A program made the translations under genes and the position numbers. Source: Escherichia phage inny. Taken from it: a stretch of DNA of 64,000 bases. The DNA is taken from sequence record MN850601.1. One strand, written 5' to 3'. How positions within the stretch are numbered: position 1 is the first letter of the stretch; each line of letters opens with the position of its first letter. Under the pieces are notes generated by a model. That model saw nothing but the letters and a program-made list of their open reading frames with translations, was not told where the DNA came from and did no database searches. Below are positions 426 to 14,196 of this stretch, piece after piece.

Positions 426-1148
426 TTAAGCAATGATTGCTGCGATATTAGGTTTAACAAAGGTAGATGGTTTCATAATTTTACCTTTGTCATCAAAGAA
501 TACGTATACCTTTTGAACTTCGTTATATACAGCATGTACCCCAGTATAAGAACCTTCTGCACGATCTTTGCTTCGCATCTCGATAGCATCGCACTCTTTT
601 TCAAGAGCTTCAATAATATCCTTAGTTTCCCAAATAGCCAGGAGTTGCTTCTTGGTAGGATACTTGGACTCATTGCTATTCAACACTTCACGCATAACCT
701 TCTTCTCGTTATAAACAGAACGCACCAAAGTATCTCGTGCCATACGGGTAAGTGTAAGAGACATTAAGGCAAATTGCAAGTCATTTTCTACCATTTTATC
801 AAATTCAATGATAACATCGTAAATGTTCTCTGCCAGAACATCTCCTGTTGGCATTTCCAGAGCTTTATCAACACCTTCTTTACCAAAGAACATAAATGCC
901 AGGTAGGATGCTACCACAAAAATATCTGCTGCTGCATCAAGTAATTCAACGTGATCATTTTCCTGTGCTGCTGCTTGAAACTCTTTAAGTTCTTCTCGTA
1001 CAAAAGAAAGTTGAGCTTCAAACATCTCTTGAGTAAATTCTGGGGTTACTCCACCACGTGCCTTAGCATTCCAAGCAACAATTTGATCGGCAGTTTTGAT
1101 AAAGAAGCTATTGTCCACTTTTACTTGTTTGAAAAAATTCTCGATCAT
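426..1148 (-). CDS. putative nucleotide pyrophosphohydrolase (MazG-like) domain protein
   Basis: 240 aa; acidic helix pair REELKEFQAA / HVELLDAAADIF resembles MazG/HisE-type NTP pyrophosphatase metal-binding helices; motif-level call only. Confidence 0.4.
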   Translation of the reverse strand: MIENFFKQVKVDNSFFIKTADQIVAWNAKARGGVTPEFTQEMFEAQLSFVREELKEFQAAAQENDHVELLDAAADIFVVASYLAFMFFGKEGVDKALEMPTGDVLAENIYDVIIEFDKMVENDLQFALMSLTLTRMARDTLVRSVYNEKKVMREVLNSNESKYPTKKQLLAIWETKDIIEALEKECDAIEMRSKDRAEGSYTGVHAVYNEVQKVYVFFDDKGKIMKPSTFVKPNIAAIIA

Positions 1149-11004: not shown

Positions 11005-11115
11005 ATGTCTACAGAAATTATTTTTGGCTTATCTGTTTTTATTGCTATTGTATCTTTTGTATGCGGTTATACACTAGGTTACAGATCAAGAAAAAATATT
11101 GTAAAAACTAGTTGA
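11005..11115 (+). CDS. small hydrophobic protein (36 aa)
   Basis: unlisted short ORF; AAGGAAA SD 7 nt upstream of ATG; single hydrophobic helix IIFGLSVFIAIVSFVCGYTLGY. Confidence 0.3.
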   Translation: MSTEIIFGLSVFIAIVSFVCGYTLGYRSRKNIVKTS

Positions 11116-11141
11116 CAACATAGCTAGTTATTTGCTAAGAT
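11112..11141 (+). promoter_or_regulatory. sigma70-like promoter TTGACA-N18-TAAGAT
   Basis: -35 at 11112..11117, -10 at 11136..11141. Confidence 0.5.
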
Positions 11142-11445: not shown

Positions 11446-11521
11446 GGTTCCATAGCTCACTGACGAGAGCGCACACCTCATAAGTGTCGAGGGCAGGGAT
11501 TGTAACCCTGGGGAACCACCA
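11446..11521 (+). tRNA. tRNA-Met/Ile2-type (anticodon CAT), non-canonical T-loop
   Basis: hand-folded cloverleaf: acceptor GGTTCC/GGAACC, D-stem GCTC/GAGC, anticodon loop CTCATAA, encoded CCA; T-loop ATTGTAA (A54, T58) instead of TTCGAAT. Confidence 0.6.
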
Positions 11522-11552
11522 TTTAAAAGGAGGTGCTATGCATCTCCTATAT

Positions 11553-11638
11553 GCAAGTGTGGTGGAATTGGTGATACACATTGTGCTTAAAACGCAACGC
11601 TTAAATGATTGAGGGTTCGAATCCCTCCACTTGCACCA
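11553..11638 (+). tRNA. tRNA-Leu (anticodon TAA), type II
   Basis: acceptor GCAAGTG/CACTTGC, 3-bp D-stem, anticodon loop CTTAAAA, long variable arm, T-arm GAGGG-TTCGAAT-CCCTC, A73, CCA. Confidence 0.85.
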
Positions 11639-11640
11639 AC

Positions 11641-11746
11641 GCCTAGTAGGGTATTTGGTAATTCCGAGGCCATCAAAGCCTGAAAAATATGTTAGACCGT
11701 TTTGTCTAACTAAATACGAAATATGGTTCGATTCCATAACTAGGCT
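11641..11746 (+). tRNA. atypical 106-nt tRNA-like element (candidate anticodon TCA)
   Basis: perfect 7-bp acceptor GCCTAGT/ACTAGGC, D-like arm with GG loop, 4-bp stem with loop CATCAAA, extra 7-bp hairpin GTTAGAC-CGTTTT-GTCTAAC, canonical T-arm TATGG-TTCGATT-CCATA; no CCA encoded; too long for a standard tRNA. Confidence 0.3.
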
Positions 11747-11781
11747 CCCGATTTAAATAGTAATTTTTTAATAAAAATATC

Positions 11782-11810
11782 TTGACATTTACTTAGTTTT
11801 TTGTTATAGT
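11782..11810 (+). promoter_or_regulatory. sigma70-like promoter TTGACA-N17-TATAGT with extended TG
   Basis: -35 at 11782..11787, TG at 11802..11803, -10 at 11805..11810; 12 nt upstream of the tRNA at 11822. Confidence 0.6.
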
Positions 11811-11821
11811 CATTATGAAAA

Positions 11822-11903
11822 CGGGGTGTATCTCACCTGACTTCTAATCAGGCGTTAACCGAGTAATTGGAGTATGCAGGTTCGAATCCTGTCACCCCGG
11901 CCA
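11822..11903 (+). tRNA. tRNA-Arg-like (anticodon TCT) lacking a canonical D-arm
   Basis: acceptor CGGGGTG/CACCCCG, only 7 nt (TATCTCA) before a perfect anticodon arm CCTGA-CTTCTAA-TCAGG, 23-nt variable region with CCGA-GTAA-TTGG hairpin, T-arm GCAGG-TTCGAAT-CCTGT, G73, CCA. Confidence 0.45.
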
Positions 11904-11921
11904 AAAAGTTTTAAAAACTAC

Positions 11922-11951
11922 TTGACAAGCAAGATAGTTTTATGTTAGATT
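11922..11951 (+). promoter_or_regulatory. sigma70-like promoter TTGACA-N17/18-TTAGAT
   Basis: -35 at 11922..11927, TG then -10 around 11945..11951. Confidence 0.55.
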
Positions 11952-11966
11952 TAAAGTATGGTAACA

Positions 11967-12056
11967 GGAAGGTAGGGCGCAGCGGTGCGCAACCAGGTTT
12001 GAACCCTGGCCCATTGTAGCGATACGGTGATGGTTCGACTCCATTATCTTCCTCCA
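11967..12056 (+). tRNA. tRNA-Ser (anticodon TGA), type II
   Basis: acceptor GGAAGGT/ATCTTCC, anticodon arm CCAGG-TTTGAAC-CCTGG, 19-nt variable arm, T-arm GATGG-TTCGACT-CCATT, CCA. Confidence 0.85.
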
Positions 12057-12075
12057 AATTCGCTTAGGAGCTTTA

Positions 12076-12227
12076 TGAATTATAAAACTATTGGACAGAT
12101 TGTTACCGGAGTTAAGATTGTAAATAATAAAGTTGTTTATGAGTATTCTAATCTTCAACAATCTGAAGATGGTAAGAATATTCGTATGGTAAAAGCAGAA
12201 CAAAAAGATTCCGGTTGTTTTGAATAA
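12076..12227 (+). CDS. small hypothetical protein (50 aa)
   Basis: ORF track 12027..12227 starts inside tRNA-Ser; trimmed to ATG at 12076 behind TAGGAG SD. Confidence 0.3.
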
Positions 12228-12235
12228 TTAAGAAC

Positions 12236-12321
12236 GGTAGATTGGTGAAATGGTAGCCACAACAGTTTGCTAAACTGTCGTCGGAAACGGCGTGTAGGTT
12301 CAAGTCCTACATCTACCGCCA
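12236..12321 (+). tRNA. tRNA-Ser (anticodon GCT), type II
   Basis: acceptor GGTAGAT/ATCTACC, 3-bp D-stem GTG/CAC, anticodon arm ACAGT-TTGCTAA-ACTGT, long variable arm, T-arm GTAGG-TTCAAGT-CCTAC, G73, CCA. Confidence 0.85.
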
Positions 12322-12377
12322 AGTTATCTTTAATGTAGCTTGTTGCTCTTAGTTGCTTGGTGTAACTTTTTGGAAGG

Positions 12378-12439
12378 ATGGCTGCAACCATCTTACTTTA
12401 ATAGAGTAAACTTTCGGCAGATGGCCCCCACCATCTTAC
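12378..12439 (+). repeat. two near-identical hairpins (GGATGG-loop-CCATCTTAC), spaced about 45 nt
   Basis: 12378..12397 AAGGATGG-CTGCAA-CCATCTT and 12422..12439 AGATGG-CCCCCA-CCATCT; both followed by TTAC; stems resemble the T-stem of the upstream tRNA-Ser. Confidence 0.5.
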
Positions 12440-12491
12440 CGATACCTCATAGTTAGTGGTGCGAACACTGGCTATTTTAAAGATAATTTAT

Positions 12492-12567
12492 ACATCGTTA
12501 GCTTAGTTGGTAGAGCAAGGGGCTTTTAACTCCAAGGTCGAAGGTTCGAATCCTTCACGATGTACCA
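12492..12567 (+). tRNA. tRNA-Lys (anticodon TTT)
   Basis: perfect acceptor ACATCGT/ACGATGT, D-arm GCTT-AGTTGGTA-GAGC, anticodon loop CTTTTAA, T-arm GAAGG-TTCGAAT-CCTTC, A73, CCA. Confidence 0.8.
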
Positions 12568-12572
12568 AACAC

Positions 12573-12659
12573 GTAGGTATCGCATAGCGGCAATTGCTGG
12601 AGACTGTAAATCTCCTGCCCTTCGGGGCTTCGTTGGTTCGAGTCCAACTACCTGCACCA
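12573..12659 (+). tRNA. tRNA-Tyr (anticodon GTA), type II
   Basis: acceptor GTAGGTA/TACCTGC, anticodon arm GGAGA-CTGTAAA-TCTCC, variable hairpin GCCC-TTCG-GGGC, T-arm GTTGG-TTCGAGT-CCAAC, A73, CCA. Confidence 0.85.
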
Positions 12660-12666
12660 AATTAAA

Positions 12667-12751
12667 GATGGATTGGCCTAGTGGTTGGGCGACGGACTGT
12701 TAATCCGTGAACGAAAGTTCTAGCAAGGTTCAAATCCTTGATCCATCGCCA
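12667..12751 (+). tRNA. type II (Ser-like architecture) tRNA with anticodon GTT (Asn-type)
   Basis: acceptor GATGGAT/ATCCATC, 3-bp D-stem GCC/GGC, perfect anticodon arm ACGGA-CTGTTAA-TCCGT, 15-nt variable arm with GAAC-GAAA-GTTC hairpin, T-arm CAAGG-TTCAAAT-CCTTG, G73, CCA. Confidence 0.7.
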
Positions 12752-12830
12752 AATAGTGCTTGTAGAGTTAATAGAAACCTCTAGAATTTTCTAGAATTGT
12801 AGGTATCAAATCCTACCAAGCAAATATTTT

Positions 12831-12905
12831 GCTCCTATCGTATAACGGCTATTACGGTTGCCTTGTAAGCAACTTATCAGGGTTCGAGTCCTTGTGGGAG
12901 CACCA
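12831..12905 (+). tRNA. tRNA-Thr (anticodon TGT)
   Basis: acceptor GCTCCTA/TGGGAGC (one G-U), anticodon arm GTTGC-CTTGTAA-GCAAC, T-arm CAGGG-TTCGAGT-CCTTG, A73, CCA. Confidence 0.8.
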
Positions 12906-12927
12906 ATTTAACTCTAAAGGAGTGTAT

Positions 12928-13251
12928 GTGACAGAAAAAGAGTTAGAGAAATATTTTAATATCAATGTTTTCGATGGTTTTGATGATATTGAAGATGTTG
13001 AAAGATATTATGAAGTAGAGTTAGATAAGGATAACATTGTAATTCTTTCTGCCACTTATGATTGTGCATATTATGAAGGCGAATCTCACGTTTATTTCTA
13101 TGATATGAAAACATCTTTGTTTTATGAAGTACACGCATATCATTGTTCTTGTTATGGCTTAGAAGGTCAGTGGGAACCTGAAGAAATAGGTGATTTGAGC
13201 TTTACGGTTGCATATCTAAACAGACGTGGTGCATCTACTATTTTAAAATAA
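12928..13251 (+). CDS. hypothetical protein (107 aa)
   Basis: ORF track 12829..13251 begins inside tRNA-Thr; trimmed to GTG at 12928 behind AAGGAG SD. Confidence 0.5.
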   Translation: MTEKELEKYFNINVFDGFDDIEDVERYYEVELDKDNIVILSATYDCAYYEGESHVYFYDMKTSLFYEVHAYHCSCYGLEGQWEPEEIGDLSFTVAYLNRRGASTILK

Positions 13252-13265
13252 ATATTAAAAGCCTC

Positions 13266-13295
13266 TTGACAAAGGGGCTAATAATATGTTAGAGT
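13266..13295 (+). promoter_or_regulatory. sigma70-like promoter TTGACA-N18-TGT-TAGAGT
   Basis: -35 at 13266..13271, TG at 13287..13288, -10 at 13290..13295; upstream of tRNA-Gly. Confidence 0.55.
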
Positions 13296-13306
13296 AATAT
13301 TGTTAA

Positions 13307-13381
13307 GCGGGTATAGTGTTAATGGTAGCATATGAGGTTTCCACCCTCCAGGTGCAGGTTCAAGTCCTGTTACTCGCTCCA
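13307..13381 (+). tRNA. tRNA-Gly (anticodon TCC)
   Basis: acceptor GCGGGTA/TACTCGC, anticodon loop TTTCCAC, T-arm GCAGG-TTCAAGT-CCTGT, U73, CCA. Confidence 0.8.
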
Positions 13382-13480
13382 AGATTATTTAAATGGAATC
13401 GCTAGAGAAAATTTCTCTTTTCGCTCATGGTTTTCTCCTTCAAACTCTAGCGGTTCTTTTTAAGTGATTTTTAGTTTTAT

Positions 13481-13555
13481 TGGAGATTAGCCTAGTGGGA
13501 AGGCAACGGCCTTTGAAGTCGTGATGACTAGGTTCGATTCCTAGATCTCCAGCCA
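13481..13555 (+). tRNA. tRNA-Gln (anticodon TTG)
   Basis: acceptor TGGAGAT/ATCTCCA with U1-A72, D-arm GCC-TAGTGGGAA-GGC, anticodon arm ACGGC-CTTTGAA-GTCGT, T-arm CTAGG-TTCGATT-CCTAG, G73, CCA. Confidence 0.8.
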
Positions 13556-13562
13556 ATATTTA

Positions 13563-13638
13563 CAGTGCGTAGCGCAGTTGGTAGCGTGGGAGCCTTGGAC
13601 GCTTCAGGTCGCAGGTTCGAGTCCTGCCGCACTGACCA
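13563..13638 (+). tRNA. tRNA-Pro (anticodon TGG)
   Basis: acceptor CAGTGCG/CGCACTG, D-arm GCGC-AGTTGGTA-GCGT, anticodon arm GGAGC-CTTGGAC-GCTTC, T-arm GCAGG-TTCGAGT-CCTGC, A73, CCA. Confidence 0.85.
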
Positions 13639-13643
13639 AATTT

Positions 13644-13718
13644 GCAGAGATAGCTGAGACGGATTAGTGCTACCCTGAAAAGGTAGAAAGGATGGATCGT
13701 TACCATCTCTCTGCACCA
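13644..13718 (+). tRNA. tRNA-Phe (anticodon GAA), non-canonical T-loop
   Basis: perfect acceptor GCAGAGA/TCTCTGC, perfect anticodon arm CTACC-CTGAAAA-GGTAG, T-arm GATGG-ATCGTTA-CCATC (A54 and T58 swapped relative to consensus), A73, CCA. Confidence 0.7.
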
Positions 13719-13795
13719 GATAACACCATCCAAGGAGAATACTTGGTTAACTGTCAATAGCACATTGAGGCTTCTTACAGTGGTGTACTTATTAT

Positions 13796-13880
13796 GGCTA
13801 AGTGGTGGAATGGTATACACGATACGCTTAGAACGTATTGCCCCAAGGGATTGTGAGTTCGAGTCTCACCTTAGCTACCA
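13796..13880 (+). tRNA. tRNA-Leu (anticodon TAG), type II
   Basis: acceptor GGCTAAG/CTTAGCT, 3-bp D-stem GTG/CAC, anticodon arm ATACG-CTTAGAA-CGTAT, variable hairpin, T-arm GTGAG-TTCGAGT-CTCAC, A73, CCA. Confidence 0.85.
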
Positions 13881-13895
13881 AATTATTACAGGTTT

Positions 13896-13974
13896 CGCGG
13901 GATAGAGGAGTCTGGTCGTCCTCGCCAGTTTCATATGCTGGAGATCGTAGGTTCAAATCCTACTCCCGTTACCA
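13896..13974 (+). tRNA. tRNA-Met/Ile2-type (anticodon CAT), second copy, unpaired 1-72
   Basis: acceptor CGCGGGA/TCCCGTT with C1 opposite U72, D-arm GAGG-(11 nt)-CCTC, anticodon arm CCAGT-TTCATAT-GCTGG, T-arm GTAGG-TTCAAAT-CCTAC, A73, CCA. Confidence 0.65.
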
Positions 13975-14032
13975 ATAAATACCTCCCTTCTGGTGTAATG
14001 ATTAAATTACATTGACACTTCAAGGAACTCAT

Positions 14033-14115
14033 AGCCGGGTAGATTTAAAAGAGTATGGTACTCAATATGGCTCCAAACCATAGATCAGGGGGTTCGATTC
14101 CTCACCTTGCTGCCA
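14033..14115 (+). tRNA. tRNA-Trp-like (anticodon CCA) with expanded D region
   Basis: anticodon arm TATGG-CTCCAAA-CCATA, T-loop TTCGATT, G73, CCA; best acceptor AGCCGGG/CCTTGCT has one C-U mismatch and leaves about 9 extra nt before the D-stem GAGT/ACTC. Confidence 0.4.
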
Positions 14116-14120
14116 ATTAT

Positions 14121-14196
14121 TGTGGTATCGTACAGATGGTTAGTACACTCGACCGATAATCGAGAAACAACGGTTCGACTCCGTTTACCACGACCA
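14121..14196 (+). tRNA. tRNA-Ile (anticodon GAT)
   Basis: acceptor TGTGGTA/TACCACG, D-arm GTAC-AGATGGTTA-GTAC, anticodon arm CTCGA-CCGATAA-TCGAG (C33), T-arm AACGG-TTCGACT-CCGTT, A73, CCA. Confidence 0.75.

Follow-up and report, generated by a model that had tools for sequence, protein, structure and literature searches.

What is the 106-nt element, resembling a transfer RNA (tRNA), that lies inside the tRNA array of Escherichia phage inny and presents UCA at the place of the anticodon? The element occupies positions 11641-11746 (+) of the window, by which we mean the whole 64,000-nt stretch of sequence record MN850601.1 that was analyzed. The source of the window is a phi92-like E. coli myovirus (Justusliebigvirus, Stephanstirmvirinae), and over the region tested the window shares 99.9% identity with phages vB-Eco-KMB37 and ALITA. 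A sequence-only reading had proposed an unusual suppressor-type tRNA with a long variable arm, a tRNA with an insertion, or a tRNA-like processing element. We find that the element is a genuine and conserved gene, and that the tRNA which it specifies is of novel structure and has been largely overlooked. Its homologs retain all parts that define a tRNA structurally, that is, a 7-bp acceptor, a D arm, an anticodon arm, a 5-bp T stem with the T-loop, the discriminator N73, and a tertiary pair between the D-loop and the T-loop. At the same time, it departs from the standard tRNA in having A8, A33, a G.G mismatch atop the anticodon stem, and a 39-nt variable region.

The main evidence is selection on the fold. 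We analyzed 21 base pairs in 20 distinct sequences of the family, and also examined a subset of 13 sequences. Over the 20 sequences, standard pairing was observed in 99.5% of pair cells, compared to 30-52% when the partners were slid by 1-3 columns. Compensatory double changes occurred in 11 of the 21 pairs and involved the acceptor, D, anticodon, and T stems. In particular, the outer pairs 11:24, 12:23, and 13:22 of the D stem covary, while G10-C25 is invariant, as are the acceptor pairs G1-C72 and C2-G71; pair 27:42 of the anticodon stem is found as A-U, G-C, or G-U. The elbow columns 18:94, equivalent to G19:C56, are G:C in 16 sequences and U:A in four, with no exceptions, and this exceptionless swap from G19:C56 to U19:A56 is direct evidence for the L-shaped tRNA fold. 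The layout of the variable region is constant in all members, comprising an A-rich linker AAAAUA, a hairpin, and a near-invariant 3' linker (G)AAUACAUA. The hairpin retains its position and its pairing while its sequence differs between members, and comparison of phage LL12 with the sequence L126 reveals a compensatory change inside it. By inspection of the aligned sequences, we found no pairing kept across lineages between the two linkers or between the anticodon loop and either the linkers or the hairpin loop.

The covariance model built from the family alignment clearly separates the members, which score 93-113 bits and occur as one copy per phage, from ordinary tRNAs, which score at most 27 bits. 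The window copy, with the score of 92.9 bits (E ~2e-20), is far above chance, the rest of the 64 kb does not exceed 21.5 bits, and the next-best matches of the model are tRNA-Ser. General tRNA searches mostly do not see the element: the Rfam model RF00005 (gathering cut-off 29 bits) gave no match to the window copy even at E <= 10 with a 117-nt query, and ARAGORN made no call at either default or lowered thresholds. One member of the rV5 type, from phage LL12, does pass RF00005, with 31.0 bits against the cut-off of 29.

The architecture of the window copy is given in Table 1. The perfect 7-bp acceptor, the canonical T arm, the D-like arm, the 4-bp stem with the loop CATCAAA and TCA at its center, A33, and the extra 7-bp hairpin, all noted from the sequence alone, proved correct. 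The exception was the spacing: the element measures 106 nt from end to end, and the acceptor strands are 91 nt apart. The minimum free energy fold recovers the acceptor, the T arm, and the hairpin with z = -2.9, only 3 of 200 shuffled sequences folding as well. The D arm may be read in two ways, either as a 6-bp stem with a 4-nt loop, as in the Rfam alignment to the selenocysteine tRNA (tRNA-Sec), or as a 4-bp stem with an 8-nt loop and A8.U14; since the inner U-A pairs never vary, covariation cannot choose between the two. The terminal CCA is not encoded after the element in Justusliebigvirus, where CCC or TCA is found instead, while U73-CCA is encoded in all UCA-type and Gly-type copies outside this genus.

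Table 1. Structural features of the 106-nt element and the preceding tRNA genes, in window coordinates.
Feature	Position	Strand	Remarks
tRNA-Met and tRNA-Leu(UAA), upstream	11446-11638	+	Probably co-transcribed with the 106-nt element
Acceptor 5' strand, GCCTAGT	11641-11647	+	All 7 bases pair with 11739-11745; family-wide compensatory changes at pairs 3-6
Connector A8-G9	11648-11649	+	A8 replaces the usual U8; invariant in 20 sequences
D arm, GGTATT-TGGT-AATTCC	11650-11665	+	Outer part of four pairs, one of them a U.U mismatch in this copy; two inner U-A pairs, invariant
D-loop G (equivalent of G19)	11658	+	Tertiary partner is the T-loop C at 11729
Anticodon arm, 17 nt	11666-11682	+	G.G mismatch 11666/11682; 4-bp stem AGGC/GCCT; loop CATCAAA
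Anticodon stem and loop, AGGC-CATCAAA-GCCT	11667-11681	+	Read directly off the sequence
Anticodon loop, CATCAAA	11671-11677	+	Anticodon TCA at 11673-11675; A33 at 11672
Variable region, 39 nt	11683-11721	+	Linker, hairpin, linker
5' A-rich linker of the variable region	11683-11690	+	
Hairpin of the variable region, GTTAGAC-CGTTTT-GTCTAAC	11691-11710	+	7 bp, 6-nt loop
3' linker of the variable region, TAAATACGAAA	11711-11721	+	
T arm, TATGG-TTCGATT-CCATA	11722-11738	+	Canonical T loop; two stem pairs covary
Acceptor 3' strand, ACTAGGC	11739-11745	+	Pairs with 11641-11647
Discriminator U73 (T)	11746	+	Followed by CCC here, by TCA in other Justusliebigvirus copies

The element belongs to a tRNA array at 11446-14196, in which ARAGORN identifies 15 genes, and is separated by 2 nt from the CCA end of tRNA-Leu(UAA) at 11638. 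A promoter-like site TTGACA-18-TAAGAT (11112-11141) precedes a small open reading frame (ORF), tRNA-Met, tRNA-Leu, and the element, while a near-consensus promoter TTGACA-17-TATAGT (11782-11810) lies downstream and serves the tRNA-like gene that comes next. We found no terminator on the plus strand. The variable hairpin looks like a minus-strand terminator, but the count of such structures equals the chance expectation, and we rejected this possibility. Throughout the family, UCA-type and Gly-type members begin 2-5 nt past a CCA or CAA 3' end, mostly that of an annotated tRNA, which varies by lineage (Leu, Thr, Ser, Ile, or Arg), and rV5-type copies have no directly adjoining tRNA. In GenBank, the records of KMB37, cardinal, Eryne, pEC-M2929-1AR.1, NINP13076, and SSE121 have short hypothetical coding sequences drawn across the element (11631-11760 in the window and the homologous regions of these records), which are almost certainly spurious calls on an RNA gene.

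A BLAST search with the element yielded 30 Justusliebigvirus records at 97-100% identity, the few differences being in the hairpin loop and the 3' trailer. Diverged copies were found in Erwinia phages Hena1 and pEa_SNUABM_55 (Vequintavirinae, Henunavirus) and in the N4-like Salmonella phage vB_SenP_UTK0002, and all copies found by BLAST sit within tRNA arrays. The records of Hena1 and pEp_SNUABM_01 already label the copy as tRNA-TERM or tRNA-sup(tca). Pattern scans of viral and metagenomic contigs yielded three further UCA-type lineages (L051, L060, and L080), which, used as queries, led to Seunavirus (PVP-SE1, SSE121, NINP13076, GAP31, and Cronobacter phages), Mydovirus (KB57 and other Klebsiella phages), phages 4MG and Ro1, and rV5-like Vequintavirus (LL12 and others). 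The family as found comprises virulent phages of Enterobacterales only, and its members are almost always in or beside a run of tRNAs. With the pattern used, we found no cellular homolog, all 24 matches in bacterial genomes being chance juxtapositions beside ordinary tRNAs, and no family match was present in 5,426 complete E. coli genomes and a plasmid collection. Patterns based on CTAAATAC or on the D loop plus the anticodon loop, one of which was mis-spaced by one N, recovered only ordinary tRNAs, transfer-messenger RNAs (tmRNAs), and coding sequence from the viral contigs. Comparison of the acceptor and T arm with 147 tRNAs of these arrays revealed no clear ancestor. We found no description of the family in the literature searched, and the rV5 genome paper lists six tRNAs, the element not being among them (PMC3606486). 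One candidate, L083, has the same CAUCAAA loop but was excluded, as the family model does not recognize it; it is an isolated, GC-rich tRNA-like sequence of ~115 nt in contig WNEW01002882.1 (~440-555, minus strand) with a 7-bp acceptor, a T arm, and a G73-CCA end, and without an ARAGORN call.

The anticodon arms fall into three types. In type (a), observed in Justusliebigvirus, Henunavirus, UTK0002, and L051/L060/L080, the G.G mismatch is followed by a 4-bp stem and the loop CAUCAAA with the UCA anticodon, and the discriminator is U73; this loop is invariant in the 13 distinct UCA-type sequences, which represent at least five lineages. In type (b), from Seunavirus, Mydovirus, 4MG, and Ro1, also with U73, the G.G mismatch is followed by the stem AGGUC/GACCU and the loop CAUCCA, CCUCCA, CAGCCA, or CCUCAA, which counts 6 nt with the C-G pair closed and 8 nt with it open; the anticodons are UCC and GCC, and once, in phage NINP13076, UCA. 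In type (c), from rV5-like phages, G.G is followed by AGGA/UCCU and UUUUUAA, with the UUU anticodon and A73; a single variant, L126, has the same stem-loop design with UAU and U73. No call of a canonical tRNA-Lys was made in the rV5-type stretches that we examined, and some of these were short.

Thus, the discriminator tracks the anticodon, U73 going with UCA and (U/G)CC, and A73 with UUU. In bacteria, glycine identity is set by U73, G1-C72, C2-G71, C35, and C36, and lysine identity by A73 and the anticodon (PMC9976931). The window copy has U73, G1-C72, and C2-G71, the discriminator U73 being present in all UCA and (U/G)CC types, as well as C35; position 36 is A, while the UCC and GCC sister types retain C36. 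Given these identity rules and the pairing of the anticodon with the discriminator, the scaffold looks glycine-type in (b) and lysine-type in (c), and type (a) looks like a glycine-type tRNA with the C36 to A replacement. Judging by the sequences, the wobble-only change from UCC to GCC in phage 4MG, with glycine kept, is as expected of a decoding tRNA. The replacement of C36 by A, which probably happened twice independently, the second case being NINP13076, is the classical single step from tRNA-Gly to a UGA suppressor. A36 is followed by A37-A38, and the resulting UCAAA is the "extended anticodon" seen in tRNA-Sec, tRNA-Trp, and tRNA-Cys.

We tentatively favor the interpretation that the element encodes an accessory phage tRNA, probably charged with glycine, that may read UGA weakly. 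It would be transcribed together with tRNA-Met and tRNA-Leu and released by RNase P plus 3' trimming, and CCA would then be supplied by the CCA-adding enzyme, which we propose because CCA is not encoded in this genus. Aminoacylation would most probably be carried out by the glycyl-tRNA synthetase, favored because the scaffold has the bacterial glycine identity set and the sister types carry UCC or GCC; the cysteinyl-tRNA synthetase, given U73, C35, and A36, would be an alternative. This form would have arisen from a Gly-type one via C36 to A. UGA may be readable, but only weakly, since A33 replaces the universal U33. The benefit would be conditional and not essential, consisting either of low-level UGA readthrough or of a structurally remodeled spare tRNA in hosts that attack tRNAs. 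The nearest functional parallel is provided by glyT-type suppressors of E. coli, which insert glycine at UGA and derive from tRNA-Gly(UCC), and which likewise place UCA on a scaffold with U73, G1-C72, C2-G71, and C35. However, those are laboratory mutants, whereas the element is natural and kept in several phage lineages; in addition, the element has A33, the 4-bp anticodon stem with G.G, A8, and a variable region of ~39 nt.

Several observations weigh against this interpretation. U33 is near-universal, and its replacement should impair ribosomal decoding; in the family, it is replaced by A33, or by C33 in two members. In the commonest subfamily, the loop has 6 (or 8) nt and is non-standard as an anticodon loop. 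In the window copy, the D stem contains a U.U mismatch, and neither an encoded CCA nor C36 is present. The type (b) phages additionally carry a canonical tRNA-Gly(UCC). In the window, TGA ends 5 of 64 large ORFs (7.8%), and no TGA-terminated ORF is followed by an in-frame extension longer than 20 codons. The shares of TGA stops in other phages are 27.5% in Hena1 and 20.0% in UTK0002, both with the UCA type, 31.3% in PVP-SE1 with the UCC type, 7.0% in phi92, and 14.9% in T4 (window versus T4, p = 0.35). Counting TGA stops, suggested as a check in the sequence-only reading, thus revealed no significant avoidance in carriers in any of the contrasts. In the comparison with phi92, which lacks the element, the stop codon was the same in all 38 orthologous pairs with aligned C-termini. 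Finally, the element is present in 30 of 55 Justusliebigvirus records and lost in 25, through at least two independent deletions: phi92, alia, and JLBYU50 have a deletion of ~127 bp that leaves a 5-nt stub, while in KKE7M and JohannJBalmer a distinct deletion of ~99 bp runs between the CTAG motifs of both acceptor strands. The recorded host of JLBYU50 and alia is E. coli K-12 MG1655.

The 25 losses, together with the identical stops, mean that no essential gene depends on this RNA and that stop usage does not respond to it. The genomic signs of a functional opal suppressor, whether in TGA avoidance, in stop codons, or in long extensions past TGA, were not found. A 4-bp anticodon stem does promote UGA reading in other systems (PMC13092985). 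Still, given A33, the G.G mismatch atop the anticodon stem, the lack of TGA avoidance, and the losses in 25 of 55 records, efficient UGA suppression by the element is unlikely. A suppressor-type tRNA with a long variable arm holds as the best formal description, with a complete, maintained cloverleaf and an invariant UCA loop, whereas TGA usage bears no sign of an active suppressor. As a separate observation, TGA is rare in Justusliebigvirus in general (~7-8% of large ORFs, against ~82% for TAA), with or without the element, while T4, of similar GC content, has ~15% TGA, the gap not being significant with these samples.

A somewhat less probable alternative is that the RNA does not decode and acts as a tRNA mimic whose acceptor/T top half, elbow, and variable region bind a host or phage factor. 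The partner could be, for instance, a tRNA-targeting nuclease or an acceptor-end toxin, with the RNA serving as a decoy or inhibitor, or as a stand-in that resists the nuclease, and the anticodon-like loop as a recognition surface. Such a role would agree with the pattern of conservation, which is best in the acceptor, D, and T arms and in the single-stranded linkers AAAAUA and GAAUACAUA, while the loop varies by lineage in both sequence and size (6, 7, or 8 nt), with A33 or C33. It would also agree with the indifference of TGA usage to the element and with the element being dispensable, polymorphic, and repeatedly lost, as is typical of accessory and anti-defense genes. There are precedents: tRNA-Lys of phage T5 neutralizes PARIS (PMC11464382), and anticodon nucleases are evaded by phage tRNAs (PMC10264068). 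The Salmonella toxin TacT recognizes Gly-tRNA by U73 and G71 (PMC9976931); the element carries this set, which we regard as a lead only. Related phages carry genes of tRNA repair and maintenance, also in favor of a mimic; those in PVP-SE1 (L132, record positions 76960-79461 and 108205-109758) encode a phosphoesterase, RNA ligase 1, a T4 Trna.2-like protein, and a tRNA nucleotidyltransferase, a set consistent with tRNA conflict in this phage group. On the other hand, a decoy must outcompete the very large host tRNA pool, no essential host tRNA with the UCA anticodon needs replacement, and the regions examined show no partner protein that accompanies the family. Moreover, the joint change of the anticodon and the discriminator and the wobble change from UCC to GCC fit a charged decoding tRNA. 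A related idea, which we put forward with similar reserve, is that the family is a new structural class of tRNAs, in which a phage-specific "armoured" scaffold bears glycine, lysine, or opal anticodons against tRNA-targeting immunity. The armor would be formed by A8, the extended D stem, the short anticodon stem, the non-U33 loop, and the variable domain of 30-40 nt with its conserved linkers, and the adversaries might include anticodon nucleases and toxins that target Gly-tRNA or the CCA end. If so, the UCA version would be a decoy or a conditionally used decoder, and not a simple suppressor.

The remaining explanations appear weaker. It is unlikely, although conceivable, that the element is functional elsewhere in the family and in Justusliebigvirus is a decaying relic drifting to loss. 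The absence of the element from 25 of 55 records, the independent deletions, the lowest score of the window type on the family model (92.9 against 96-113 bits), the U.U mismatch in the D stem, and CCC or TCA where CCA is expected all point in this direction. However, identity among the 30 retained copies is 97-100%, the few substitutions falling in the 3' trailer and in the loop of the hairpin; no damage is seen in the acceptor, anticodon, or T stem, and distant lineages have the very same anticodon loop. Besides, E. coli has the CCA-adding enzyme, so an uncoded CCA does not disable a tRNA. We consider it very improbable that the element only acts in cis, as a processing or punctuation signal that recruits RNase P or shields the 3' end of the upstream tRNA. 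It does end the tRNA-Met/tRNA-Leu unit just before the promoter at 11782-11810, and the T4 cluster also has stable tRNA-like RNAs of obscure function. Yet an acceptor/T minihelix suffices for RNase P, whereas in the element selection also extends to the D stem, the elbow pair G19:C56, and both stem and loop of the anticodon arm, which makes a pure processing element, one of the initial proposals, unlikely; furthermore, the upstream neighbor varies between lineages, the rV5-type copy does not adjoin a tRNA, and tRNA-Leu is normal in phages that have lost the element.

Least credible of all are a tRNA-Sec, an intron-containing tRNA-Leu(CAA), and a small protein-coding gene. The element shares with bacterial tRNA-Sec (selC, RF01852) the UCA anticodon, the absence of U8, and the long variable arm, and one of the two readings of its D arm would be of the 6-bp/4-nt kind; the Rfam tRNA-Sec model aligns to it end to end, and its loop differs from CUUCAAA of E. 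coli tRNA-Sec at position 33 only. But the Sec-type character hinted at in the sequence-only reading finds no support, since the acceptor and T stems are 7/5 and not 8/5, the discriminator is U73 and not G73, the anticodon stem has 4 bp and not 6, and A33 is present; with 7 + 5 = 12 bp and no spare nucleotide before the acceptor 3' strand, the 13-bp acceptor/T branch cannot be formed, and UCA gives way to the glycine and lysine anticodons UCC, GCC, or UUU in sister lineages. The covariance-model check gave 29.4 bits for the window copy, 39.0 for Hena1, and 23-31 for the Gly type, against the cut-off of 47; the score of the window copy is no better than those of ordinary tRNA-Ser and tRNA-Tyr in related arrays (34-41 bits). 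If introns are allowed, ARAGORN calls tRNA-Leu(caa), but the boundaries and the length of the supposed intron vary between homologs (24 nt in the window and 11 nt in other copies), the resulting anticodon stem contains C.U mismatches, and the call discards the covarying hairpin, and we therefore reject an insertion of the intron kind. As for the coding sequences placed over the element in KMB37, cardinal, and other records, indels in the variable region are not multiples of three (the members have 97-107 nt), and the substitutions follow RNA pairing. A tmRNA was rejected too, as the element has C3-G70 and not G3.U70, has an anticodon arm, is only 106 nt long, and yields no tmRNA call by ARAGORN.

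Among other unusual RNAs, allo-tRNAs and selC* tRNA-Cys have Sec-like cloverleaves and varied anticodons including UCA with U73, some of them in phages, and have been proposed to be suppressors or regulatory RNAs; they are defined by 8/4 or 9/3 acceptor and T stems (Mukai et al., PMC5389517). The family does not belong there, as all 20 sequences are 7/5, and the variable region of the element is much longer and flanked by conserved single strands. Class II tRNAs (Ser, Leu, and Tyr) also have an extra hairpin between the anticodon and T arms; however, in the family, the variable region has 30-40 nt, with single-stranded linkers of 6-11 nt on each side, and the discriminator (U or A) and the anticodons are unlike those of Ser, Leu, and Tyr. 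The species 1 and 2 RNAs of T4 (rnaC and rnaD) are likewise oversized stable RNAs from a phage tRNA cluster, and in rnaC the ends are acceptor-like and a long hairpin directly precedes a T arm. However, rnaC lacks an equivalent of the anticodon arm, a D arm with GG, and CCA. Homology with rnaC and rnaD was rejected: the folds differ, and in the T4 stretch the family model matched only two ordinary tRNAs at ~18-21 bits. Similarly to T5 tRNA-Lys (PMC11464382), the element is an accessory phage gene with an anticodon stem-loop deviating from that of the host, and the rV5 type has Lys(UUU) with A73. However, T5 tRNA-Lys is a normal cloverleaf with few substitutions, whereas in the element the whole body is remodeled, and its UCA anticodon in the window is carried by no essential host tRNA. 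Finally, the tRNA-Trp with a 4-bp stem in Blastocrithidia and some bacteria (PMC13092985) shares the unpaired top pair of the anticodon stem, linked to stop reading, but has the CCA anticodon and a canonical body, while the anticodon of the element is already cognate to UGA.

The window and related phages contain other unusual tRNAs. Downstream of the element, at 11821-11902 (+), there is a second aberrant tRNA-like gene, expected to be driven by its own near-consensus promoter at 11782-11810 and kept in phages without the 106-nt element. In this gene, the acceptor is CGGGGUG/CACCCCG, and the D arm is replaced by the 7-nt connector UAUCUCA; the anticodon arm reads CCUGA-CUUCUAA-UCAGG (UCU, Arg type), and it is followed by a long variable hairpin, a T arm, and a G73-CCA end. 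Its score with the Rfam tRNA model is 38.6 bits; ARAGORN does not call it, and its label in two GenBank records is 'tRNA-Undet/OTHER'. The sequence at 14038-14115 (+) resembles a degenerate tRNA-Trp(CCA), and its acceptor stem is mismatched; ARAGORN calls it at the relaxed threshold only, and it scores weakly with both Rfam tRNA-Sec (22.4 bits) and the family model (18 bits). In Vequintavirinae arrays, ARAGORN reports further 'tRNA-???' with 2-nt or 4-nt anticodons, that is, with 6-nt or 8-nt loops (928-997 and 2598-2672 in L117, 5994-6079 in L123, 192-261 in L124, and 5383-5457 in L125), and non-standard anticodon loops may be recurrent in the arrays of these phages. In the metagenomic phage array L080, a CUA (amber-reading) tRNA at 2791-2865, with two mismatches in the anticodon stem and an A73-CCA end, stands beside the UCA-type family member.

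The gene is present in about 100 sequenced phages that infect E. coli, Salmonella, Klebsiella, Cronobacter, Erwinia, and their relatives. Among them are rV5-like phages, PVP-SE1, and many phi92-like phages, and several have found use in therapy or biocontrol. Annotation of the gene is almost always lacking, its place being left blank or covered by a hypothetical coding sequence in other records. The existence of natural phages with and without the element, otherwise 97-99% identical, makes the question of its function directly testable. The gene shows that a tRNA can be heavily remodeled, having no U8, no U33, and a variable region of ~39 nt, with the L-shape and the identity elements kept. 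If the RNA is charged and reads UGA, it would be a natural opal suppressor in lytic phages with the standard code; if it is a mimic, it would be a new player in the conflict of phages and their hosts over tRNAs.

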